NCBI GenBank assembly: GCA_964389905.1
Contig: CAYMGD010000002.1
Location: forward strand, 2,843 to 66,842
Reading direction: 5' to 3'
Origin: an uncultured Coprobacillus sp.
GTDB taxonomy: Bacteria; Bacillota_I; Bacilli_A; ML615J-28; CAG-698
DNA: 64,000 nt
Shown here: positions 1 through 50,157 of the stretch, piece after piece
How the letters are laid out: each line of letters begins with the position of its first letter
Numbering within the stretch: position 1 is the stretch's first letter
Made by a program: the position numbers and the translations under genes
The notes under the pieces: generated by a model
Told to the model about the DNA's origin: nothing
The model's database searches: none
Seen by the model: the letters and a program-made list of their open reading frames with translations, nothing else

Positions 1-2818
1 CAGCTGATGTTTTGCCTGTTAAAATAAAGTGTTTATATTTTTTTTCGTTAAACTTTGGAGTTAACAAATCAAAAGCTGATGTAAACTGACTAAATATTAT
101 TACTTTGTGATCATTTGCGAGATATTCTTCTAATAAATCCATCAACAAATCAAACTTCGCTGAAGAGCCCTTATAATTCTCTACAAATAATTCTGGATGA
201 ACACAAATTTGTCTTAATCTTGTTAAACAAGACAAAATCTCAATTTTTGATGAATTAGGATTAACAAGTATTTCTCTAGTTTCTCTTAGTTTAGCTTCAT
301 ATATCAATCTTTGATCACTTTCCATTGAAGCAATTTGAATTGTTTCAATCTTATCAGGCAAATCTTTTAAAACTTCTTTTTTTGTTCTTCGCAAAACGAA
401 AGGTGATATTTTTCTTATTAATTGTTCTACTACTTCTTCAGCATTACCACTAACTACTGCTTCTTCATATTTTGATCTGAATGAACTATAATCACCCAAA
501 TATTCTGGCATTAAGAAGTCAAATATACTCCATAAGTCTACTACACTATTTTCAATTGGAGTACCCGTTAAAACAAATCTGTGAGATGATTTAATCTTCT
601 TCACTGATTTTGCTTTTAAAGTATTATGATTCTTTATACTTTGAGCTTCATCTAAAACTAAGAAATTAAATTTCTTACTCTTATATAGATCTATATCATT
701 TCTTAAACTATCATATGACGAAACATAAATGGTCTTTTCTTTGTTTTTAATTCCTTCAATAATTTGCTTACGCTCATTTACGCCGCCTATTACATTAATG
801 ACTTGTATATCTTTAGCCCATAACGAAAACTCATTTTTCCAATTATAACATAAACTCTTAGGACAAACAATTAAACTTGGCGAATTTGTTTTGTCAGACA
901 TAATAACAGATATTACCTCAAGAGTTTTTCCCAGCCCCATATCATCAGCTAATACTCCGCAGAAATTATGTTTTATCAGTGTTTTCATCCACTTATAGGC
1001 ATCCACCTGATATCCTCTCATTATTTCTTTTAGGCTTTCAGGGACAGCAACCTTTAATTCTTTAAAGTTTACAATTTCTTGAATTAGATTTTTTAAACTT
1101 TCATCTAATGTGTAATCTACAATGTCAATATCGTCTACCATTTTTAGGGATTGATATAATGGAACACTTTGACTTTCGTTCAATTTCTTTGCATCAAGTT
1201 TAAAAGTTTCTATTGTATTAAGAAGTTTATTAGCATCTTTTTCGTCTACTTCAATTATTGTATCTTTGCTTAGTTTAATAAATCGCATCTTTTTCTTTAA
1301 ATTAGTAATAATGCGATATAATTCTTCATCAGTAAAACCACTTTCCTCAAAACAAATATCTAACATCCCTGTTTTGTATGACATATGCGCTGAAACAGGT
1401 TTCATTTTACTTGTTTTTACTTCTGTTAGATTTTCTGACAAATAAATATCTGATAATTTTTTTAGTTCGCTTAAATCAGTTCGCAAGAAATTATATACTA
1501 AATTAGGTTCTTCGATACAATTATTTTTAAATCCTAAATTAGCGATATAAGATAAATACCTATTTATCTTGTATGGATATTTGTTTAACTTTTCCAAAGA
1601 GATTTCCTTGCTTCCCTTCTTATATTTACTATCCAATAAAAGTATTCCATCTTTATAGTCAAAATATGAAGATATTTGATATTCTTCAGTTTTTATATCA
1701 TTTTTTATACTTTCGTCTATTTCAATTTCTTCAGCAAAACGTGGATAAATTGATTTTTCAAATACATCTTTGATATATGCAAAAGAAATACCTTTTTGTT
1801 CAGTTATTGTATTAATTAGTTTACGATATGCAGGGTCTTTATTCTCCAGTTCAAATATTTCTTTCCCACAGATAACAAAATCTTTGGAATAACCTTCAAT
1901 TAATCCTTTTACACCTTTCAAGTTTAAAATATGATTTTTATCTAAATATAGCTTAGGAGATAACATTTTATCAGAAACAAAATATTTACAATCGTCTGAA
2001 AAGTTTTCAACATATATAAAACGATTCTTGAATAGTTCCAAAAGCCTTTCTGCTTTAATAGGTGCTAAATCAACTTCTTTTTTGGAATTGTATTCTGAAA
2101 AACTAAAAGCTGCTAAAAATGTAACTATTTCACGTGAAAAATCATCAAAAGCTTCTAATGAATGAACAAAAGAAAACTTCTTGCCATAAGAAACTAAACT
2201 ATTCTCACGAACTGCAGAAACAAAATCACGTACATTTTGTACTACATATTTCTTTTCATCACCGACTCTAATTGAAAGATTAACTGAATCTTCTTGATAT
2301 TTTCGATGTTCAAAATTTATTCGACAATCAATTGACATTTTTTTGTTTTGTACAAGTGTGTCATATTTATCGATATCACCAAGAAAAGATTTCAATTTTT
2401 CCATGCTTTCTTTTCGCTTAACTTTATATTCCTCAATGCGAATCTCTTCTTCAATTTTTTCAAATTTTTTATTTAATTCTTCAACATTTTGTTCTATTTC
2501 TAAACTCTCATAATAGCGAACAAGAGCAAAGAAATGCTTGCATGTCTTAGAATAACGATCAGCTAAACATTTATGATCTAATATATTATCATTTTCATCA
2601 ACGATTATTGTCATAAATGGATTTTCATTTATTGAATATTTCAAAATGAAACTATATCTTAATACTCGTTGTAACTCATCTCCTCTTTTATAGATAAGGC
2701 AATCGTACTCGATACGAAATAACTCACCAAATCCTTCTTCAAAAAGAGTTCGACCATTTTCTTCACAATTACTTACATGATAATTTATAGGAATCTTATT
2801 ATATTCTAATTGGTACAT
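1..2818 (-). CDS. SNF2-family (Swi2/Snf2; YwqA/RapA-like) DNA-dependent ATPase, about 940 N-terminal codons; the 3' end runs off the window
   Basis: Missing from the ORF track only because no stop codon lies inside the window. Hand translation of the minus strand from ATG 2818 is open to base 1 (MYQLEYNKIPINY...). The GGTGGA RBS at 2823-2828 overlaps the stop of the upstream gene. The translation contains a SWIM-like CKHFFAL element near the N-terminus and SNF2 motifs LADDMGLGKT (I, encoded near 930-960), VLDEAQSIKN (II) and LTGTPIEN (III). Confidence 0.85.
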   Translation of the reverse strand, partial: MYQLEYNKIPINYHVSNCEENGRTLFEEGFGELFRIEYDCLIYKRGDELQRVLRYSFILKYSINENPFMTIIVDENDNILDHKCLADRYSKTCKHFFALVRYYESLEIEQNVEELNKKFEKIEEEIRIEEYKVKRKESMEKLKSFLGDIDKYDTLVQNKKMSIDCRINFEHRKYQEDSVNLSIRVGDEKKYVVQNVRDFVSAVRENSLVSYGKKFSFVHSLEAFDDFSREIVTFLAAFSFSEYNSKKEVDLAPIKAERLLELFKNRFIYVENFSDDCKYFVSDKMLSPKLYLDKNHILNLKGVKGLIEGYSKDFVICGKEIFELENKDPAYRKLINTITEQKGISFAYIKDVFEKSIYPRFAEEIEIDESIKNDIKTEEYQISSYFDYKDGILLLDSKYKKGSKEISLEKLNKYPYKINRYLSYIANLGFKNNCIEEPNLVYNFLRTDLSELKKLSDIYLSENLTEVKTSKMKPVSAHMSYKTGMLDICFEESGFTDEELYRIITNLKKKMRFIKLSKDTIIEVDEKDANKLLNTIETFKLDAKKLNESQSVPLYQSLKMVDDIDIVDYTLDESLKNLIQEIVNFKELKVAVPESLKEIMRGYQVDAYKWMKTLIKHNFCGVLADDMGLGKTLEVISVIMSDKTNSPSLIVCPKSLCYNWKNEFSLWAKDIQVINVIGGVNERKQIIEGIKNKEKTIYVSSYDSLRNDIDLYKSKKFNFLVLDEAQSIKNHNTLKAKSVKKIKSSHRFVLTGTPIENSVVDLWSIFDFLMPEYLGDYSSFRSKYEEAVVSGNAEEVVEQLIRKISPFVLRRTKKEVLKDLPDKIETIQIASMESDQRLIYEAKLRETREILVNPNSSKIEILSCLTRLRQICVHPELFVENYKGSSAKFDLLMDLLEEYLANDHKVIIFSQFTSAFDLLTPKFNEKKYKHFILTGKTSA

Positions 2819-2827
2819 TTTTTCCAC

Positions 2828-4261
2828 CTATATATTTAATTCTGATTCAAAACATTCGTATTTATATCTATCATCATAAGGTATATATTCTTCAAAGATA
2901 TACTTCAAAAACATCTCAACATAATATCCACCAAATTTGTAAGAATTTATCATTCGTAAATACTTTATGACATCTTTTACGCTTCTACTTCTTACATAAG
3001 TGTAAATTTTTTTTTCAAAATAAGGAATAAAAGCTTCTTTGTAATTTTCAAACAAAGTACGTGAGTATTTCATAACCTCTGAAAAGCCCATACAAGAAGC
3101 TTCATCCAATAGGTTTTCATAATCAGCTATCGCCTCATATATCTCACATCTTTCGGTTATACTATAATTACTTATTAATGCGTTAAGCATAGATTTATCC
3201 TTAATTAAATTCTTTTTATATAAAATCTTTAATATATTTAAAGATGGTCCTGATTTTATTATTTCATTAGCAGTTTTCTCATTAGGTTTTGCATTAATTA
3301 AAGCTTCATAATACAATTCTCTAATTTCCTCATCTTTATCATTATGATAAATATTTATGATATCATCATACATTTTATTTTTCATTTGAACATTCATATA
3401 TTTCATTTTTATTCTTTTTATATGAATATTACATAAACAAATATCTTTAAACTCTTCATTTTTCTCATGCAAAAGCAAATAATCTAATTTTGCTATTAAT
3501 GCTACTTCGTAGCCTTCTTCAAGTTTTAATTCTTTAACTATATCAATAAGGAAGTTTAAAACGTCAATGTAATCTTCTTCTGCACTATTATTAGCAAGTC
3601 CATTTATTACTTTTATTAATACGTCTTTTGAAGCAATATAAGAAAAACCATTTATATTATAATCCCAAGAAAAATTTCTCATAGAATTTATTAAATCAAA
3701 TATTTTTTTATAATAATTAAGCTTTAATGGTTTATTATTAATTGATGCCAACATTACAATAGCTTTATAATACAAATCAGATTCGGACTTTTGACTAATT
3801 ATTTTACTAAGCATCTTTTCAGCATTACATTCGAAATCATCAGCCAAAGAATCTATTAAAAGATAGCGTGGTCCAATAATTCGTGATAAATAATTATATA
3901 ATTCTTCAGCATTCATATTAACTATATCATAGCTCATATCATCAACGCTACACAATTCATCTAATTTTTCACAATTTTCTTTCAAGTATAGAATTGATGG
4001 AATATAATGCTCACAAACTCCCCTATCTCGGCAGGAACATTCAAATTTTAAAATATTATTTTGTAAAAAGAGTATAGAGTATTCATTTTTATCAAAAACA
4101 ACAATAATTTTTTCTTTTTTAGGTGAGAAAAAATATTTAATATGATTTGCTTTGTAATAATTATGTCCTCTTGCAATATCCCTTATATAGAACTTGTTTT
4201 CAAGATTAAATCTACTAATTTTAGTTGCTAAGTTTGTTTTATATTCCATTTTATCCCTCAC
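2828..4261 (-). CDS. SWIM zinc-finger domain protein, otherwise uncharacterised
   Basis: 477-aa ORF. CSCRDRGVCEH fits the CxCx(n)CxH SWIM signature. The rest is K/N/I/Y-rich helical sequence with no motif I recognise. There is a 9-nt gap to the SNF2 gene, so the two are probably translationally coupled. Confidence 0.7.
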   Translation of the reverse strand: MRDKMEYKTNLATKISRFNLENKFYIRDIARGHNYYKANHIKYFFSPKKEKIIVVFDKNEYSILFLQNNILKFECSCRDRGVCEHYIPSILYLKENCEKLDELCSVDDMSYDIVNMNAEELYNYLSRIIGPRYLLIDSLADDFECNAEKMLSKIISQKSESDLYYKAIVMLASINNKPLKLNYYKKIFDLINSMRNFSWDYNINGFSYIASKDVLIKVINGLANNSAEEDYIDVLNFLIDIVKELKLEEGYEVALIAKLDYLLLHEKNEEFKDICLCNIHIKRIKMKYMNVQMKNKMYDDIINIYHNDKDEEIRELYYEALINAKPNEKTANEIIKSGPSLNILKILYKKNLIKDKSMLNALISNYSITERCEIYEAIADYENLLDEASCMGFSEVMKYSRTLFENYKEAFIPYFEKKIYTYVRSRSVKDVIKYLRMINSYKFGGYYVEMFLKYIFEEYIPYDDRYKYECFESELNI

Positions 4262-4319
4262 ATTGTCTTATAATTATACTATATAAATTAGTAAATAACA
4301 ATGATTTTTTTTGGGGTTT

Positions 4320-5378
4320 TTAATTATATGTTATTTTCTTTACCATTTGAAAAAGGTATTTAGCATTCTTAATTTTGTAATATTTTATAAATTCATTATA
4401 TCTTTCATTTATTTTTTCAAACATCACCTTTTTTGTCATTTTTGAAACAAAAAAGAAATATTTTTTCATTTCATCAGTGATTTTAAGACAATCACTTTTG
4501 ATATATGTATGATTTTTAATTTGGTAATAAAACAATGAATGTTTTAAAATTGCTTTTATTTTCCTTTCACAAACTACCAACTTCAAAGAATTAACAATAT
4601 CTTCTAGCTTAAATGTATTGCGATAACTTTCGCATATCATATGTACGAGATATATTTCTTCTTTATTAGCATATTCTTTTGCATATGTTGAGACAAATCC
4701 AAAATATTTTTCTTGATATTTTGGCTTTAAACAGAACATATCTTCATTTTTGAAAAAGTATACATACATTATATTTTGAGCCTTTAAGTGTTCATTATAA
4801 ATTTGATAATACCTTTTTTCAAATTCATTAATGTTTTGAAATCCTTGTGAGAATTCTTTATTGTAAAGAAAACATATTTTATATTCGACACTTACATATC
4901 CTTTTGCATAAAAGTGTTGATATTTCTCATACTCTTTATTTATTCTATTGATTATTATGTCCTCACTTACTTCCATGTTGGTGCTACTAATATTATCTTT
5001 TAATGTACATATCAACTTTTTATATTGCTCAAGTGTAAGATATTTATTATAACTTTTTACAATATATTCATCTGATGGTATATCTTTCGAAGTATAAATA
5101 TCATACATTTCATTGTATTTTACACCAAAAATATGATTTTTCTTTACAAGATACTCTATAACTAAATAGTATTTAGGAAAAAATTTCTTTAAATCTTCTT
5201 CAGTAAAAAAACCATCTCTAATTGATAGAATATACTTGATGATGTATCTTCCATCATATGAATCAAAAAAGATTTGAAATGCGCTTAATACTTCTTCATA
5301 TCCTTTCTTTATTTTCTTATATGTCGCATCTATAATTTTTGTAATTATATTATTTTTTGTATTCTTTATCTTTAACAT
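4320..5378 (-). CDS. hypothetical protein (352 aa), member of the SNF2/SWIM operon
   Basis: Long uninterrupted ORF, co-directional and closely spaced with its neighbours. No recognisable motif. Confidence 0.6.
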   Translation of the reverse strand: MLKIKNTKNNIITKIIDATYKKIKKGYEEVLSAFQIFFDSYDGRYIIKYILSIRDGFFTEEDLKKFFPKYYLVIEYLVKKNHIFGVKYNEMYDIYTSKDIPSDEYIVKSYNKYLTLEQYKKLICTLKDNISSTNMEVSEDIIINRINKEYEKYQHFYAKGYVSVEYKICFLYNKEFSQGFQNINEFEKRYYQIYNEHLKAQNIMYVYFFKNEDMFCLKPKYQEKYFGFVSTYAKEYANKEEIYLVHMICESYRNTFKLEDIVNSLKLVVCERKIKAILKHSLFYYQIKNHTYIKSDCLKITDEMKKYFFFVSKMTKKVMFEKINERYNEFIKYYKIKNAKYLFQMVKKITYN

Positions 5379-42531: not shown

Positions 42532-43329
42532 ATGAATTTTAAAGATAAAGTAATTATTATAACTGGCGCTGGTAGAAGCGTTTTAAGCGATGGAAAATGT
42601 GGATCAATTGGTTATGGTATTGCAACTGCCTTTGCTAAAGAAGGAGCAAACCTTGTTATAACTGGAAGAAATGTTACAAAACTTGAAGAAGCAAAAAAAG
42701 AATTAGAAGAAAAATATAACATAAAGGTTCTTGCTCTTCAAGCTGATGTTAGTGCAAACAATGATAATGAGAAAGTTGTACAACATGTAATTGATGAAAC
42801 TATTAAAACATTTAATCGTATCGATGTTTTAATTAATAATGCTCAAGCAAGTGCTAGTGGTGTAGAACTTGCCAACCATACAACAGACCAATTCAATTTA
42901 GCAATGTACTCAGGATTATATGCCACATTCTATTATATGAAGTATGCTTTCCCTTATTTAAAAGAAACAAAAGGAAGCGTAATCAACTTTGCAAGTGGTG
43001 CTGGTTTATTTGGAAACTTTGGTCAAGCATCATATGCAGCTAGTAAAGAAGGCATCAGAGGCTTAAGTAGAGTTGCCGCAAATGAATGGATTAGATATGG
43101 TGTAAACGTAAATGTGGTTTGTCCTTTAGCATGGACTAGTCAACTAGAAAAATTCAAAGAAGCTTATCCAGAAGCGTATAAAGCGAATGTTCACATTCCT
43201 CCAATTGGTCATATCGGCGACGCTGAAACAGAAATTGGAAGAGTTTGTGTTCAACTAGCTTCACCTGATTTCAAATATATGACAGGTGAAACAATCACAT
43301 TAGAAGGTGGTTTAGGTTTAAGACCATAA
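42532..43329 (+). CDS. short-chain dehydrogenase/reductase (SDR) family oxidoreductase
   Basis: 265 aa. TGAGRS...GIG cofactor motif and catalytic YAASK. Confidence 0.85.
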   Translation: MNFKDKVIIITGAGRSVLSDGKCGSIGYGIATAFAKEGANLVITGRNVTKLEEAKKELEEKYNIKVLALQADVSANNDNEKVVQHVIDETIKTFNRIDVLINNAQASASGVELANHTTDQFNLAMYSGLYATFYYMKYAFPYLKETKGSVINFASGAGLFGNFGQASYAASKEGIRGLSRVAANEWIRYGVNVNVVCPLAWTSQLEKFKEAYPEAYKANVHIPPIGHIGDAETEIGRVCVQLASPDFKYMTGETITLEGGLGLRP

Positions 43330-43510: not shown

Positions 43511-44555
43511 TTATTTTTTATATCTCAACTGTATATTTAATGTAAAATATATTTTATTATCCTGTGGCGTCTTATATAATTTAATCATCCCATATCTTGA
43601 AGTACTCGGTGAATCAAATTTAGTTTCCTTTACTATATATTTCAAAACTTCGTTTCTGAAATACACTAAATCAAGTATAACTACTGTACCATCGTCTTTA
43701 ACAATAACTAGACCCCCATTTACAGAATTATAACCATTCCATTTAGTTCCTGGAACAAATCCAAAGCTTATACCTTCCATAAAATCTGTTAATTTCTTTA
43801 AAGCAAGTGCCTTATCATAAAAATTGTTACCTTTTATAAAACAATTTGATAAATCTTTTCCCCTTTATATGACTCTAAAAGTGCATTTCCTAAATATAAT
43901 GGCAGATTGGAGTCAATCATTCTTAAATTATAATCAAAAGTCTCAGAACAAACTTTTTTGAATCTGATAATTCCTCCTCTTTTTTGTATTTCTTCTAACC
44001 TATCTAAAAGTTTTGTTCGTGTATTTATTGAATTTATTTCGTCAATACATTCATCACTCAATCCAATTATTTCATACAAAAAATTCGTGTTTTGACTTGA
44101 GTTAAGCATAGTTGCTGGACTTCCTAAAGATGACTTAATGCTATATTTAAGTACTTTTCTGACCCTAATCTTGCATCTAAAACAGTAGCTTCCATATCTT
44201 GTTTGTTCATAGATTTCGATTTTATTGGGAAACCCTTTGACATTTTAATAAGTAAGTCGTTAATATTACTGAGTTCAAACGATCCACTACCTTTAGGTGC
44301 ATTTTTTATTGCTTCATATATCTTATTTTTGCTTTCTATCGATTCTATTTGTGTAATCAAATTATCAAAATCATTATTTAAATATACCTCTACATCACCA
44401 TTATCGTTTAATTCATATTCAGTTATACCTATATTTGGATAAACTCTTATCTTTTTAAGTTTATATAATTCATGTGTAATCTCTTCTAATTCAGAGTTAC
44501 CAATAGATAATTCAGACAAAAAAGCATTGATAGTATTGCATATATTTCTGACCAC
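43511..44555 (-). pseudogene. fragmented type II restriction endonuclease gene (HpaII-like family assignment is tentative)
   Basis: Three consecutive co-linear ORFs (44124-44555, 43834-44109, 43511-43780) sit in different frames and together make about 350 codons, directly downstream of the C5-methyltransferase. The family call is from memory of the C-terminal sequence only. Confidence 0.5.
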
Positions 44556-44564
44556 TCGCCTCTA

Positions 44565-45469
44565 TTAAACAAACTCATTCATTTTCCCTCCTTGTAACAC
44601 TTTTATCATTTCAGCTCCAACTGCTTGAACAGCTGGGATAGCAACTGAATTTCCTAGTTGTTTCATTGCTGCAGATTTAGAAACAGGAAATACAAAATCA
44701 TCTGGAAATCCTTGCATTCTTTTTCCTTCTTTGGGGCCTATTCGTCTTTCTTTTCCATCAACTATATATCCATCCCAATTTCTCCTATCATTAATTGGTG
44801 AATTTTTTCCACCAACTCTTAATGTAAAACCAATTTCTTTATTAACAACCGCACCATCAAATACCCAGTTCATATTTTTAGTCAAAGGTATGGGATTTGG
44901 AAAAACAAAAGACGAATCGTCAATATCATTTCTAAAACAAACCATATACAGTCTAGGCCTATTTTGAGGACAATTAAAATCAGAAGCTTTAACAATTTGA
45001 TGATGAAAATTATATCCTAGTTCCAAAATAGTATTTTTAATCACCTCAAAAGTTTTTCCACCATTATGAGTGAAAAGTCCTCTCACATTTTCCAAAAATA
45101 CTACTTTAGGCTTTTTTCCTTCATTATACTAGCAACATTAAAAAACAAAGTTCCCCTAGTATCTTCAAATCCTTTTTTCTGCCCTGCTTGAGAAAATGGT
45201 TGACATGGAAATCCTGCACACAATACATCATGGTCTGGTATATCACTTGGAGTAACCTTGGTTATATCGCCAACATAATACTTATCATTTTCAAAAATTT
45301 TAGGACATATTTTAATAAAATTTGTTTTGTAAGTTTTTCGACAATCCGAATCCAATTCCGACGCAAAAACACATTTTCCACCGAGATTATCCATAGCTAT
45401 ATGAAATCCACCAATTCCAGCAAACAAATCTATAAATGCAAATGTCTTCACTTTTATCACCTTCTTCAA
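44565..45469 (-). pseudogene. DNA (cytosine-5)-methyltransferase, disrupted by a -1 frameshift in an A-run
   Basis: Motif I FIDLFAGIGGF and motif IV GFPCQPFS are in ORF 45101-45469. Motif VI ENVRGL and downstream blocks are in ORF 44565-45095. The A6 run at 45112-45117 reads ...MKEKSLK*. One extra A would give the canonical ...MKEKKPKVVFLENVRGL. Confidence 0.85.
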
Positions 45470-45549
45470 ACTTAATATTCTTATGTTTATTTTCTAATAT
45501 CTATATTTTATAAAACTAACTCTTGGAAAGTACTTTTCAAAAGTATTAT

Positions 45550-46110
45550 TTATTCCTTTATTTCCCAGTGCCCACTTTTTCTAGAGCCGATTCTAATTAT
45601 TAAATCTTGTTCAATTAAATTTTTTAATGCTCTTTTTATAGTTTTCCTAGATAAATTAAGTTGTGACATCATATCATCAATAGTATAATTAGCATTTTCT
45701 TTTATCAATTCTAGTACTTTTAATGTAGATTTCGATAATTTTAAAGGCTCATTTACACTCTTATTTTGAGTTTCATTTATAGTTAATGCATTTTTATTAT
45801 ATGGTAAATTTACTTGTAAATAATTATCTGTGAAATTAAAAACTTCTTCACCATAATGATTTACTATAGTATTTATTCCTTTACCACTTTGTTCAATTAT
45901 TCCTAGTTTCATTAATATATTAGCAGTTCTGGGTTTACAGGATTTGATATTCCCATTAAAAAATCTTCTTTAGTTTGATTTTTCAAAGGATTGCCATATG
46001 AAAAAAATTCAATATGGTCATTATAAACAAAAACTGCAGGTCCTAAATGCTTAGAATAATCATTATTTTGTCTGTTATAACATCAGATATTTCTTTTAAT
46101 AGTTTATCTA
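45550..46110 (-). pseudogene. truncated and degraded copy of an AlbA_2/HATPase_c_4-type gene (C-terminal part only)
   Basis: ORF 45550-45912 (..LGIIEQSGKGI.. plus a C-terminal wHTH) corresponds to the C-terminal third of the 479-aa gene at 14984-16423. Upstream sequence to about 46110 carries out-of-frame fragments. Confidence 0.55.
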
Positions 46111-46118
46111 CATTATTT

Positions 46119-47039
46119 CTACTTTATTAAACTAATAATCGCAAAAACTATAGCAACACAAACTAAAAAGATGTATAGTCCGATAAAAATTTTGGGTACT
46201 CTTTTTTCAATCTTTGTGAATGAAACATAATTTTTTGTTCCTAGTTTTTCACTCATTATCTTCCACTCGGTGTCATAAATATTTGCATACAAGTTTTTTT
46301 CCATTTGTGATATAACTTTAATCTTAGCACCATTTAAATTGCCATATGAATCTAATAATTTATTCCAATTCAAACACAATAGAATTCCAATTAAACTAAT
46401 TATTATTGCTATCCCACAACCTACTAAATAATTATTTTTTATTGAATCAATCCCAAATATAACACCAGTGCTTGTCACAGCAATCGTTAATAATGATGTA
46501 TTTAGGGTTGTATAAAAATTTGAAACAGTTTGTCTGCGATTTAATACCTCTTCACTAGTTTCCAGATACGCTTTATATTGTTCTATTAAGCCACTGTCTT
46601 TTTTAAAAGCTATAGCTTCCTCTAAAGTCTCTTTAATATCAAAGTCATATCCGTATTTTAATATTTTAGTTAAATTATCCAAAGTAATTTTTTTAAATAA
46701 TGGTCTATCATTACTGGTAAACGAATCTACAGAAAATAATGTTTTGTTAATAATATAATTACCAGTTGGATTCAATTCATATAATAATATTTGTTTATGT
46801 TTTTTTATTGCGTAATTTATTTCATAGTCTACGTTTTTACTTTTATGCGTATTTTCTCCTAAAATATATAAAACCAAATCACAAGCTTTAATTTTGTATT
46901 TTGCTTCTTTTTTCCAAGATCTAAATGTACTATCAGATTCCAATATTAGAATATCAGCATTGATTCTTTTTGTTATTTCTTTTCTTAGTTTTACAACTTC
47001 TTCAAAATTTTCACCTTTATGTATAACAAAGATTCGCAT
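46119..47039 (-). CDS. TIR-like (DUF1863/ThsB-like) domain fused to a multi-TM, SLATT-like C-terminal domain
   Basis: 306 aa with an AAGAGGA RBS. The N-terminal RIFVIH...W..EAKYKIKACDLVLYILGENTHKSKNVDYEINYAIKKHKQILLYEL fits the TIR-like pattern (W...i..sd.vivl.g..t..S.wv.wEi..A). The C-terminal half has three predicted TM helices and an NWNKLLDSYGNLNGAKIKVISQMEKNL segment. Confidence 0.65.
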   Translation of the reverse strand: MRIFVIHKGENFEEVVKLRKEITKRINADILILESDSTFRSWKKEAKYKIKACDLVLYILGENTHKSKNVDYEINYAIKKHKQILLYELNPTGNYIINKTLFSVDSFTSNDRPLFKKITLDNLTKILKYGYDFDIKETLEEAIAFKKDSGLIEQYKAYLETSEEVLNRRQTVSNFYTTLNTSLLTIAVTSTGVIFGIDSIKNNYLVGCGIAIIISLIGILLCLNWNKLLDSYGNLNGAKIKVISQMEKNLYANIYDTEWKIMSEKLGTKNYVSFTKIEKRVPKIFIGLYIFLVCVAIVFAIISLIK

Positions 47040-47189
47040 CCATTTGTCCTCTTTTCATTTTTAAAATTTTTTGTAATTATCATTGGCTTTTTTTAATTAA
47101 TTGTATCATAAATTTGTTTTTTAAGCAAATTATAAAAGCAAAAACACCGATATTTCTACCGATGTTAATTATCTTATTTTGTTAATTTT

Positions 47190-47795
47190 TTACAACTCTT
47201 CTAGTTCTCCCATAGTTATTTCATCAAATTCATCCATTTGTTTTAAAACAGCAATTAATGCTTTAATTCTTTTAGTTTGTGTATCAGTTAAATCATATTC
47301 TTCTAATATATCATTCAATATTTTTATTAAATCTTTTATGGTAATTTTGTTAGTGTCTAATGTTTTAAATTCATTTTGAAATTAGTTAATTCTTCTATTT
47401 GCATTTCACAAGGAAATTCAACATATCCATCATCATAAGAACTACCAGTTCCTTTATTAGTTACTTCTATATCAACTTGATATGATGGTTTATCAAGATT
47501 TCCCAATGATGATTTATCTATTTTAACAACATAATATCGAATTAAAAAAAATCATCAATTACAGGAAATTTATTAACATCAAATATGATAATAAATTTTT
47601 TTCCATCAAATTTTATACCATCAATTCCTATTATTTTTTTGACGTACATATATCAAATGTAACTATCATTAACGCATAATCCTCAAAAAATTCCTCATTA
47701 TAACGTTTATGAACACTAGCAAGAATTGAACTAGTTTCCTCATCATCCGTAGTAACAATATGAATATATAATGATTTAGTAACATCAGTTATCAT
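47190..47795 (-). pseudogene. gene of unknown function broken by several frameshifts
   Basis: Hand translation gives four co-linear fragments in different frames: MITDVTKSLYIHIV...; IIGIDGIKFDGKKF...; ...YQVDIEVTNKGTGSSYDDGYVEF...; ...KRIKALIAVLKQMDEFDEITMGELEEL*. Two of the breaks coincide with A7 and T8 homopolymer runs. Confidence 0.5.
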
Positions 47796-47815
47796 TTGTT
47801 ATAATAAACATAAAT

Positions 47816-47844
47816 AAAAGCACCTACCATTTTTGATAGATGCT
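47816..47844 (-). terminator. terminator hairpin after the Fic-like gene (copy 1 of a duplicated element)
   Basis: On the minus strand: GCATCTA-TCAAAAATGG-TAGGTGC followed by TTTTATTT. It is nearly identical to 59020-59047. Confidence 0.6.
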
Positions 47845-47888
47845 CTCATAGATCTAGATAAAATTAGTGTTTGTCAATATCAAATAAT

Positions 47889-48833
47889 TTATGAATTAAT
47901 TGTCTTCCAACAATTCTTTTTCATAAATTCTGCAATTATTGATATATCTCCACCATCATAATATTTCACAAGCAGTTTTTTAAATTCAGTAACTTCTCTT
48001 TCTGGAATGACTAAAAATCCACCACCATGAGCTATTAAATAGTGATTAGCAAAAATAACGGATGCCCTCTTGTTTCCATCAAGAAATATTTGTGTCTTCA
48101 TACAATAAAGACATAACTCAATAGCTATATCAATTGCATCCTTTTCTTTAAGTTCTATTTCTTGAATTTTTTCTTTCACATCAAATTCGTTAGGAAGTGG
48201 AGGAATATATGAAGAACCACCAATTGTGACAGGCACTCCACGAATACGACCACCCTCAGCAAAGAAGCCTTCATTAACAAGTTTTGCTATATGGCACAGC
48301 ATGTAATAACCGCTTTTACTTGCTATAACATCTCTATCAAGTATGAATTCCCAAGCGTGTTTTAAGTTTAATATTTTTTGAACATCAGTAGCTGTCATGC
48401 CATTTACTTTTCCATTTTCTATGATTTCTTCTGTTTGAGGAAAAGATGTTGCAACACCTTCTAAAACTGCTTGATCATAAATATTCATCTTCATATTGGC
48501 TCTAGCAAATGCAATGTTATTTACCACATCAGCAGAAAGTTCATCCTCTGAATATCCCAATGAAGCAAGTTTTTTTTCAATTTCACGTAAACCTTTTCTA
48601 ATTTCACGAGCCTCTTTTGCATTTTTTAAAAGAAGATTATAAAGTTCATCCGTGTATAATCCAACATAGGTCGATGTTAATCTTCCTGCAACTCTTTTTC
48701 TAATATATAGATATTTTCCATCACCTTTTTGTTTAACTTCGGGTGTACCATCATAAGCCATTAGACTAAGTCTAGCATTCAAATCAGCTTTTTTTCTTAA
48801 CAATTCTTGTATATCATTAAATTTTTCAGACAT
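47889..48833 (-). CDS. Fic/Doc-family protein with Gln replacing the catalytic His (QIFLDGNKR)
   Basis: 314 aa. The motif QIFLDGNKRAS aligns to HxFx(D/E)GN(G/K)R. The codon is CAA, one substitution away from CAT or CAC. Confidence 0.7.
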   Translation of the reverse strand: MSEKFNDIQELLRKKADLNARLSLMAYDGTPEVKQKGDGKYLYIRKRVAGRLTSTYVGLYTDELYNLLLKNAKEAREIRKGLREIEKKLASLGYSEDELSADVVNNIAFARANMKMNIYDQAVLEGVATSFPQTEEIIENGKVNGMTATDVQKILNLKHAWEFILDRDVIASKSGYYMLCHIAKLVNEGFFAEGGRIRGVPVTIGGSSYIPPLPNEFDVKEKIQEIELKEKDAIDIAIELCLYCMKTQIFLDGNKRASVIFANHYLIAHGGGFLVIPEREVTEFKKLLVKYYDGGDISIIAEFMKKNCWKTINS

Positions 48834-49236: not shown

Positions 49237-50157
49237 TTATGATAAAGTTATTATTTGTGCTCCTTGTAATAATCTTTTTTGAAGTGTTTCTATTAAGTGT
49301 GAATCAACCTTCATTTCCTTCCATGATGATAACTGTCTATTCGTTACAATAAATATACTTCTAGTTTCCTGTAAAAACATTATTAGTTTATAAAAGAGCG
49401 TTAATTCTTCTAATATTGGTGTTACATAGAATACATCATCAATTATTACCACATCAGAATTTAAGATATTATTCCAACATTTCTTCTTTATCTTAGATTC
49501 TAGTAGTAAATCATCTAATGTAACATATATTACTTTTGTTCCTTTTTCAGTAGAACAATAACCAACAATAAAGATATTTTGTCTATTTGATGAAAAATCA
49601 AATTCTTTTATTTTAGATAATTGCCATTTTAGTCCATCTGTAATTCTTGTTTCATCAAATACTAATTATTTTAATCTTGATATCTTTTTAATATCTTTTA
49701 GTTTATTATCACTTCTGATATTAACTTCTTCTAAAAGAATATTATATAGATAATCTTTATTTGAAATAGTTTCATTATTTAAATCAATAATACCATTTGC
49801 GATATTCTGTAAATTTTCTTGGTAGTTTTATAAGTCCTGTTTGTTCTCGTACCATTTTAACATATCTAAAGAATGTTGATGTAGGTATTTCAAAATCAGG
49901 AAAGTCTTTTTTATTCTATTAAATAAAACAGTATTATTTATTTGTGTGCAAATTTTTATAAGTTCTATAATATACTATCTATAATTATCTAAAATAAATT
50001 CATGTTCTTTTTGAAATTTATCAAAAAATTCTATATCTTTATCCCACCAATTACAAACTGTTTTATATGATAGATTTAGTTTTTCTGATACTTTAAGTTT
50101 TGATACTCCTAGTTCTTTTAGTTCTTGTAATTTCTTAAATTGTTCAATTCCTAGCAT
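49237..50157 (-). mobile_element. IS21-family remnant (IstA N-terminal HTH fragment plus a degraded IstB)
   Basis: ORF 49975-50157 is an IstA-type HTH start. Frames between 49237 and 49800 give IstB-like pieces (..YLYNILLEEVNIRSDNKL.., ..VVIIDDVFYV.., ..IVTNRQLSSW..) with stops, frameshifts and a missing Walker A. The total length is far too short for an intact IS21. Confidence 0.6.

Follow-up and report, generated by a model that had tools for sequence, protein, structure and literature searches.

What would an intact gene for a TIR domain joined to a membrane domain be doing in a piece of genome where most of the genes around it have decayed? This question is raised by a stretch of 64,000 nucleotides from an uncultured Coprobacillus sp. 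(contig CAYMGD010000002.1, positions 2,843 to 66,842 of the forward strand), the whole of which we call the window. It contains a variable island of about 7 kb (43.4-50.2 kb) in which most genes are pseudogenes. The gene studied here, called the TIR-8xMP gene after the two domains of its product, is one of two intact genes in this island. With slightly better than even confidence we regard it as coding for a membrane-embedded, single-polypeptide abortive-infection module which would work in a Thoeris-like way. The gene and the parts of its product are as follows.

46119..47039, minus strand: intact TIR-8xMP gene, 306 amino acids plus TAG stop, ATG start
47047..47052, minus strand: ribosome-binding site AGAGGA, 7 nt before the ATG at 47039-47037, read from the sequence
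46680..47039, minus strand: minimal ThsB-type TIR domain, amino acids 1-120, by PF08937 and Foldseek; predicted cytoplasmic
46821..46823, minus strand: codon GAA for Glu73, predicted catalytic glutamate of the TIR domain, invariant in 44 homologues
46590..46679, minus strand: linker, amino acids 121-150, poorly conserved (mean pairwise identity 28%; predicted local distance difference test score, pLDDT, 60-75)
46122..46589, minus strand: 8xMP domain PF24838, amino acids 151-306; long helical hairpin, short helix and third transmembrane (TM) helix
46446..46508, minus strand: TM1, amino acids 178-198, by hydropathy scan and charge counts
46365..46430, minus strand: TM2, amino acids 204-225, by hydropathy scan; the TM1-TM2 loop is only 5 amino acids long
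46191..46364, minus strand: conserved cytoplasmic segment, amino acids 226-283, with 11 K/R; together with the residues before TM1 a candidate platform for ligand binding or gating
46125..46190, minus strand: TM3, amino acids 284-305, by hydropathy scan

The gene was first noticed in an earlier note made from the letters of the window, and its description of a reading frame of 306 codons behind a good ribosome-binding site holds. The window has a G+C content of 28.5% and reads normally under code 11. We considered an alternative code with TGA for Trp as the source of the apparent pseudogenes and rejected it, because long open reading frames (ORFs) end in TGA under code 11 and because the disruptions examined in the window are mostly frameshifts. 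Scans for promoters and terminators around the gene gave matches at chance level only, and a search for non-coding RNA or repeat structure near the gene found none.

The N-terminal half was compared with profiles and with solved structures. On its own, the window protein scores 27.0 bits against ThsB_TIR (PF08937, cutoff 21.2) and 25.3 bits against TIR_2 (PF13676), the latter just under the cutoff of 28; in precomputed annotation both families are assigned to most of the homologues. The ThsB models of PADLOC match it weakly (E~5e-4), and a search of NCBIfam gave no match. An AlphaFold2 (AF2) model of the protein, computed from 44 homologues, has a pLDDT of 82.5, and with its N-terminal domain Foldseek returned, at probability 1.0, 7xoz (RPPT-TIR), 8fz9 (a Bacillus cereus TIR, TMt 0.64), the ThsB structures 6lhy and 9b7d and SpbK (9phb). 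Further TIR matches are TIR-STING (9lmq, 9lmr), SPARTA and SARM1. In the alignment of the 44 homologues, in which identity goes down to 34%, W42 and E73 (the Glu of VDYEINYA) are invariant, and profile alignments place E73 opposite the 'wEI' glutamate both of 8fz9 and of verified Thoeris TIRs. 8fz9 is also the best sequence match of the TIR profile in the PDB (E=1.2e-5). With a PF08937 score above the cutoff, a TIR fold and the invariant W42 and E73, the N-terminal half is by these comparisons a minimal ThsB-type TIR domain with Glu73 as its predicted catalytic residue, in agreement with the TIR-like N-terminus, conserved Trp and Glu included, that had been proposed for it.

The C-terminal half belongs to PF24838, 8xMP, the 'Octameric membrane protein family' of Pfam. 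The match (106.7 bits, cutoff 30, E=1.1e-30) runs over model positions 1-135 of 136 and covers amino acids 152-297. In an AF2 model of this domain alone (pLDDT 87.4), TM1 and TM2 are the distal halves of the long hairpin. The 5-residue loop between TM1 and TM2 holds one K/R and the 58-residue segment between TM2 and TM3 holds eleven; therefore we take both the N-terminal domain and the TM2-TM3 segment to be cytoplasmic. In the predicted topology, the TIR domain and the two most conserved segments of 8xMP thus lie together on the cytoplasmic face. These two segments are rich in residues which are invariant among the fused homologues, namely Y155, K156, T161, S162, E163, R168, R169 and Q170 before TM1 and Y232, G233, L235, N236, K239, E247, L250, E258, W259, Y271, F274, E278 and P282 within amino acids 226-283. 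The three hydrophobic helices and the conserved segment noticed earlier could thus both be mapped.

The membrane half is the more conserved one. In the 44-sequence alignment it has 25 invariant residues as against 7 in the TIR half, and a mean pairwise identity of 52%, where the TIR domain has 41%. Stand-alone 8xMP proteins keep most of the polar residues that do not vary in the 8xMP half of the fusions, either without exception or with a conservation of 90% or more; across 34 sequences of these relatives R21, Q23, N33, W78, N89, K92, E100, E111, W112, Y124 and E131 (domain numbering) do not vary. Since 8xMP is the more conserved half and its invariant polar residues are kept where it stands alone, the pattern fits the role of an effector or receptor better than that of a passive anchor, and the conserved cytoplasmic segments are candidates for ligand binding. 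The earlier note had brought up the 2-TM SLATT type in connection with the membrane half. A SLATT identity had to be given up: the family is PF24838, there are three TM segments and not two, and SLATT profiles matched neither the window protein at E<=10 nor any of the 34 stand-alone relatives at E<=5. The only remote Pfam match among these 34 relatives is CyanoTRADDas_TM, at E=3.1 and in 2 members. No solved homologue of the 8xMP half was found by sequence, nor by Foldseek in the PDB (best E=2.6) or BFVD, and a literature search for 8xMP, PF24838, octameric membrane protein, DUF7701 and TIR-TM gave no relevant publication.

What the two halves have to do with each other becomes clearer when 8xMP is followed through other genomes. 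We scanned metagenome contigs with an 8xMP profile, called ORFs at the 80 loci found (71 of them non-redundant) and searched these with hidden Markov models (HMMs) for TIR. Ten of the 71 loci are cut by a contig end and cannot be judged. Among the 61 that were judged, 39 carry a TIR-8xMP fusion and 18 a TIR gene immediately upstream of 8xMP on the same strand; at two further loci a TIR gene lies elsewhere in the flank, and at two no TIR gene was found near 8xMP. The 18 upstream genes are ThsB_TIR by Pfam (35-55 bits). They overlap 8xMP by up to 13 bp or stop up to 7 bp short of it, in most cases with a 4-bp overlap of the ATGA type or a gap of 4-7 bp. The short TIR genes of the split form code for 122-155 amino acids, are of the ThsB type and often occur twice per locus, as at L022, where two ThsB_TIR genes are followed by an 8xMP gene with a 4-bp overlap. 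8xMP is thus almost always tied to a ThsB-type TIR, either by fusion or by a translationally coupled gene pair. Because the order of the split genes, TIR and then 8xMP, is collinear with the order of the domains in the fusion, the two modules are in terms of sequence joined by a fusion-type (Rosetta-stone) link.

A profile of the C-terminal domain finds, besides fusions, many stand-alone 8xMP proteins of 150-200 amino acids. An exhaustive HMM search of 1.84 billion cluster representatives gave 3,942 8xMP proteins (50%-identity clusters) at E<=1e-3; the best 150 of these 3,942 representatives comprise 67 TIR fusions, 77 proteins with 8xMP alone and 6 with another N-terminal extension. At L018, a stand-alone 8xMP locus, no TIR gene was seen.

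Some variants of the arrangement may be mentioned here. At L020 (5655-6576) a TIR ORF of 100 amino acids lies 44 bp upstream of an 8xMP ORF of 191 amino acids. By eye, the start of the 8xMP ORF resembles the linker seen in fusions; the pair looks less like an ancestral operon of two genes than like a fusion gene that a recent mutation has cut in two. At two loci from environmental metagenomes (L082, 3626-4447, and L088, 568-1398) 8xMP carries an N-terminal DUF7701 (PF24792, E~1e-31 to 1e-33). These form a sub-class of the split systems, in which 4-7 bp separate the gene from the end of an upstream ThsB_TIR gene for 127-146 amino acids. In one protein (P0315, 292 amino acids) the usual layout is turned round, with 8xMP at the N-terminus (amino acids 19-173) followed by a C-terminal extension of about 120 amino acids without a Pfam match.

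Does the fused gene depend on neighbours? A search of 5.8 billion proteins for homologues gave 61 clusters with 34-92% identity, nearly all about 305 amino acids long and of the same fused architecture; the few that bear a name are 'TIR domain-containing protein' from Clostridia metagenome-assembled genomes (MAGs). A scan of genome contigs with the single window protein gave one locus, in an Oscillospiraceae MAG, at 84% identity. The contexts of the fused gene vary. L002, the closest relative at 92% identity, has a DUF6788-Fic gene 52 bp upstream of the fused gene and one for an acetyltransferase downstream; at 86% identity (L005-L008) the fused gene stands alone, inserted between the rpsU/dnaG/sigA genes and a HIT/radical-SAM operon. 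Elsewhere it lies beside acyltransferases and ABC exporters, with a type I restriction-modification system and an integrase close by, beside ArsC and DegV, or beside DHH phosphoesterases. Restriction-modification genes adjoin it in the window and in L009. Across ten distinct homologue contexts we found no conserved partner gene. At about 85% nucleotide identity, similarity between the window and the homologue loci ends at the gene borders and reaches no more than about 30 bp beyond the ORF, apart from the Fic gene that L002-L004 share with the window. Because the contexts vary and similarity stops at the gene borders, the TIR-8xMP gene is, as far as such comparisons tell, a small, mobile and self-sufficient cassette. 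The proposal that the fusion of TIR and membrane domain is a single-gene module is thus strengthened: the two are fused from 92 down to 34% identity, and a conserved second gene is not seen.

The gene is also well kept. The pairwise ratio of non-synonymous to synonymous substitution rates (dN/dS) is 0.036 against L002 and 0.093 against L005, low in both domains, a value that mostly reflects the past and not the present. All 32 family-invariant residues are present in the window protein, and ribosome-binding site, start and full-length frame are conserved. By these measures the gene is under strong purifying selection. A phage origin was considered and rejected in view of its near absence from viral contigs: two scans of 2.9 million of them gave one distant stand-alone 8xMP, without a TIR gene nearby.

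In L015/L016 (8975-11638, 39% identity) two genes for DHH/DHHA1 phosphoesterases and one for a SurE nucleotidase come after the TIR-8xMP gene, on its strand. Their products could degrade a nucleotide signal, or the three could be just housekeeping neighbours.

For comparison with described defence systems we used the preprint of Yirmiya et al. (bioRxiv, 3 Dec 2025, doi 10.64898/2025.12.03.692087), in which 29 putative Thoeris configurations are catalogued and types V-XI verified. Type VII (TIR and SLATT, with cyclic ADP-ribose, cADPR, as signal) and other operons of a TIR with a TM effector are verified signal-driven defence systems. Fig. 1C and the portion of Table S1 used here also contain an effector class '3TM', with at least 100 rows. 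At L063 the TIR that precedes the 8xMP gene shares 67% identity with a TIR labelled '3TM', IMG 2676542066, and the latter is 100% identical to the Anaerobium acetethylicum protein P0178. The locus of P0178 (L104) consists of a TIR gene (159 amino acids), an 8xMP gene (149 amino acids, PF24838) and a second TIR gene (135 amino acids), with a caspase-like gene upstream. On account of the likeness at L063, the identity of IMG 2676542066 with P0178 and the PF24838 gene adjoining the latter, the split form of TIR and 8xMP is, judged by sequence, the '3TM' putative Thoeris effector class. The fused form is outside the scope of the preprint, since its pipeline removed stand-alone TIR proteins outside multigene operons as likely not signalling.

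The '3TM' systems and the window protein have the same two modules, a ThsB-type TIR and a PF24838 membrane protein. In the former these are separate genes, sometimes with two TIR genes, whereas in the window they form one polypeptide, and the profile of the fused TIR is only distantly similar to the two '3TM' TIRs that were scored (18.8 and 16.7 bits). When the TIR profile of the window family was run against 30 TIRs taken from Table S1, the highest score among these was that of a type VII ThsB (36.4 bits), followed by type IV (34 bits), and type I ThsB scored poorly. The relationship is visible to profile searches only, as a pairwise BLASTP comparison of the window TIR domain with one type VII ThsB gave no match. 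Type VII, that is, ThsB with the SLATT protein ThsH and cADPR, is alike in combining a short TIR with a small multi-TM effector, and 8fz9 closely resembles one type VII ThsB of Table S1, judged by eye on two sequences. For ThsH itself, oligomers and ligand pockets on the cytoplasmic side are predicted. The membrane domain in the window differs from it in not being SLATT, in having 3 TM helices and not 2 and in being fused and not split. Type II Thoeris (ThsB with a Macro-TM effector and His-ADPR) offers a likeness in mechanism, for according to the introduction of the preprint a TIR-made derivative of ADP-ribose (ADPR) activates there a membrane-spanning effector that forms a lethal pore. The window protein has no Macro domain; its candidate ligand part is the helical juxtamembrane platform.

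Single-polypeptide proteins which join a TIR to a regulatory or oligomerising domain are found in TIR-STING, TIR-SAVED/Cap12 and SARM1, and the TIR-STING structures 9lmq and 9lmr are among the fold matches given above. In these proteins, however, the TIR is an NADase output and its partner a soluble nucleotide sensor. None of them is known to have an integral-membrane partner domain. Thoeris in turn is made of separate TIR and effector genes, and the window has one ORF and no conserved partner; at most, then, the window gene works like Thoeris and is not a canonical member of it.

The locus L104 deserves a remark of its own. At 1671-4408 of this Anaerobium acetethylicum sequence (GCA_900096945.1) a Peptidase_C14 gene is followed by TIR, 8xMP and TIR genes, all downstream of a gene for a MobA/MobL relaxase. 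Possibly two kinds of effector, 8xMP and a caspase such as type IV uses, are combined here in one Thoeris locus carried by a mobile element.

Because the same two modules occur elsewhere as separate adjacent genes, we favour a Thoeris-like division of labour, in which the TIR domain generates or senses and 8xMP is the membrane effector. We suggest that the protein could act in the following steps. The TIR-8xMP protein would oligomerise in the membrane; that the oligomer is an octamer is taken from the Pfam family name only. Upon phage infection the TIR domain would sense and, at Glu73, turn NAD+ into an ADPR-derived signal, as ThsB proteins do. This signal could then be read by the cytoplasmic platform of 8xMP (Y155, K156, T161, S162, E163, R168, R169, Q170, Y232, N236, K239, E247, E258, W259, Y271 and E278), in the same oligomer or in neighbouring ones. 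Finally the TM bundle would open or disrupt the membrane and lead to growth stop or cell death before phage release. The gene would act alone and need no partner gene. In its strictest form, the proposal says that the fusion holds a whole immune signalling pathway in one membrane protein, a TIR-made ADPR-derived messenger gating the attached oligomeric 8xMP pore; this form we put forward tentatively.

Several points weigh against the proposal. The TIR score of the window protein itself is marginal (27 bits, and E~5e-4 with the PADLOC models of ThsB). Foldseek gives for the N-terminal domain similar scores with DNPH1, the nucleoside 2-deoxyribosyltransferases (NDT) and the CMP N-glycosidase BcmB. 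Since no structure related to 8xMP has been solved, a role as pore or channel is proposed by analogy. The '3TM' class, for its part, is a predicted one and absent from the tested systems of Yirmiya et al. With the two domains covalently joined 1:1, the need for a diffusible messenger is less obvious, and direct conformational coupling or plain depletion of NAD+ would explain the fused architecture equally well. The neighbours of the fused genes are mostly housekeeping and transport genes with scattered matches to defence models, and enrichment in defence islands is not demonstrated; a PADLOC scan of 100 neighbour ORFs gave scattered AbiLi, AriA, MzaA, RT_UG29 and PDC families, counts that come without a background rate and include several probable cross-hits to housekeeping proteins.

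The alternative which survives best has the roles reversed. Here the TIR would be the effector, an NADase that depletes NAD+, and 8xMP a membrane sensor and scaffold for oligomerisation, with no diffusible signal; 8xMP would detect a phage protein or a phage-induced perturbation of membrane or envelope and cluster the TIRs into an active assembly. The known single-polypeptide TIR fusions of bacteria do use the TIR as an NADase effector activated by oligomerisation, TIR-STING, SPARTA and SARM1 are among the Foldseek matches, and E73 is invariant. The setting aside of stand-alone TIR proteins as likely not signalling by Yirmiya et al. points in the same direction, and a 1:1 fusion suits activation by induced proximity at least as naturally as it suits signalling. 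However, the split forms, with short ThsB-type TIR genes (122-155 amino acids), often two, beside 8xMP, have the layout of signal-driven Thoeris, and the TIR profile has its best scores with ThsBs verified to produce a signal (types VII and IV). A further point against it is that conservation is higher in 8xMP, where many polar residues on the cytoplasmic side are invariant. Sequence alone does not decide between the two assignments of roles; reversed roles we judge rather doubtful.

A second alternative is that the protein has nothing to do with immunity. It would then be an N-glycosidase of the TIR/NDT superfamily that is anchored in the membrane and acts on nucleotides or nucleosides, for instance in nucleotide salvage or in signalling at the membrane, and would lie in a variable region by chance. 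The similar scores of DNPH1, NDT and BcmB agree with this, as do the near absence of the gene from viral contigs and the many homologues among housekeeping genes. The last point had been named beforehand as one that would tell against a defence role. Such contexts are indeed frequent, yet a conserved metabolic operon is not found. Moreover the gene is patchily distributed and variably located, with similarity ending at its borders at about 85% nucleotide identity, and Pfam assigns the window protein to TIR families and not to Nuc_deoxyrib_tr. The linkage of 8xMP is to ThsB-type TIR genes, and L104, with its caspase-like gene beside a MobA/MobL relaxase gene, is a mobile-element setting. We therefore consider an N-glycosidase of this kind unlikely.

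Finally, that the ORF is intact by chance or by recent arrival, and silent or non-functional beside the decay of a dying island, is very improbable: most genes of the island are pseudogenes, an insertion of about 820 bp parts the gene from the Fic gene, its close neighbour in L002, and promoter-like matches are not above chance, but the full-length frame, ribosome-binding site and start are conserved, all 32 family-invariant residues are retained and dN/dS against the nearest relatives is 0.04-0.09, even if this value mostly reflects the past.

Coming back to the Thoeris-like division of labour, 8xMP is a large family (3,942 clusters at 50% identity and E<=1e-3) with no solved relative in the PDB or BFVD and no literature that we could find. 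New here is its tie to a ThsB-type TIR, and that this pair corresponds to the '3TM' class of the preprint, from which the fused form was excluded. If the signal is indeed read in cis or by a neighbouring copy, the protein would be the first in which a TIR signal generator and its receptor-effector form one polypeptide, and 8xMP would be a new fold of ligand-gated membrane effector without a solved relative. If instead the TIR is an NADase output, the protein would be a sensor-TIR that resides in the membrane, a design not described so far for bacteria. Either reading would add to the single-gene defence modules catalogued in gut and rumen Firmicutes. With 306 amino acids in one gene, the system is a compact object on which to ask whether 8xMP is gated by a signal, which ADPR derivative, if any, it reads and how a generator fused to its effector avoids self-activation.

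The surroundings of the gene in the window are the following.

43511..46060, minus strand: pseudogene tract with HpaII-type endonuclease fragments, a frameshifted C-5 methyltransferase and a truncated HATPase_c_4/winged helix-turn-helix (wHTH) regulator
45550-46060, minus strand: remnant of the HATPase_c_4 and wHTH regulator, 5'-truncated and frameshifted; the Pfam match spans a stitched junction
45101-45469 and 44565-45128, minus strand: two halves of a C-5 cytosine methyltransferase, split by a frameshift near 45101-45128
43834-44109 and 43511-43780, minus strand: fragments of an HpaII-type restriction endonuclease, RE_HpaII profile positions 152-239 and 279-359
47073..47892, minus strand: lineage-specific stretch of about 820 bp between the Fic and TIR-8xMP genes, carrying degraded ORF pieces at 47190-47795
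47889..48833, minus strand: intact Fic/Doc-like gene, 314 amino acids (Pfam Fic, E=4.8e-7)

The earlier note had described the neighbours on both sides as disrupted and had proposed the broken gene at 47190-47795 as a lost partner. The first statement is right for 43511-46060 and for 47190-47795, with the qualifier that the next gene upstream, the Fic-like one, is intact. The second could not be upheld. The broken gene consists of four coding-looking pieces in frames 0/2/1/0. The stretch 47073-47892 which carries it is absent from L002-L004, where the Fic and TIR-8xMP genes are 52 bp apart, and thus from the closest relative, L002, at 92% amino acid identity; it has no similarity to the flank of any homologue locus, and no protein family matched it. 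For these reasons we take the broken gene, on sequence grounds, to be an unrelated insertion. The Fic gene as an obligatory partner was also considered and rejected, for it adjoins TIR-8xMP only in the window and in L002-L004. The Fic-like proteins of the window and of L002 (272-1231) are 88% identical, and the L002 orthologue carries DUF6788 and Fic. Their active-site motif QIFLDGNKR, conserved in L002, has the Doc-like 'NKR' and a Gln where the catalytic His is expected.

On the lower-coordinate side, 43511-45469 of the minus strand is a decayed HpaII-type restriction-modification system, the endonuclease of which is left as at least two fragments. An ORF of 143 amino acids at 44124-44555 matches no family and may be the N-terminal part of this endonuclease. 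The island as a whole is bounded by an SDR gene (42532-43329) and by an ABC transporter operon (from 50273). Near its upper end two ORFs of the minus strand resemble parts of transposition proteins by eye, 49237-49452 the C-terminal end of an IstB-type ATPase and 49975-50157 the N-terminal helix-turn-helix of an IstA-type transposase of the IS21 family. If this likeness holds, remnants of an insertion sequence lie at the upper edge of the island.

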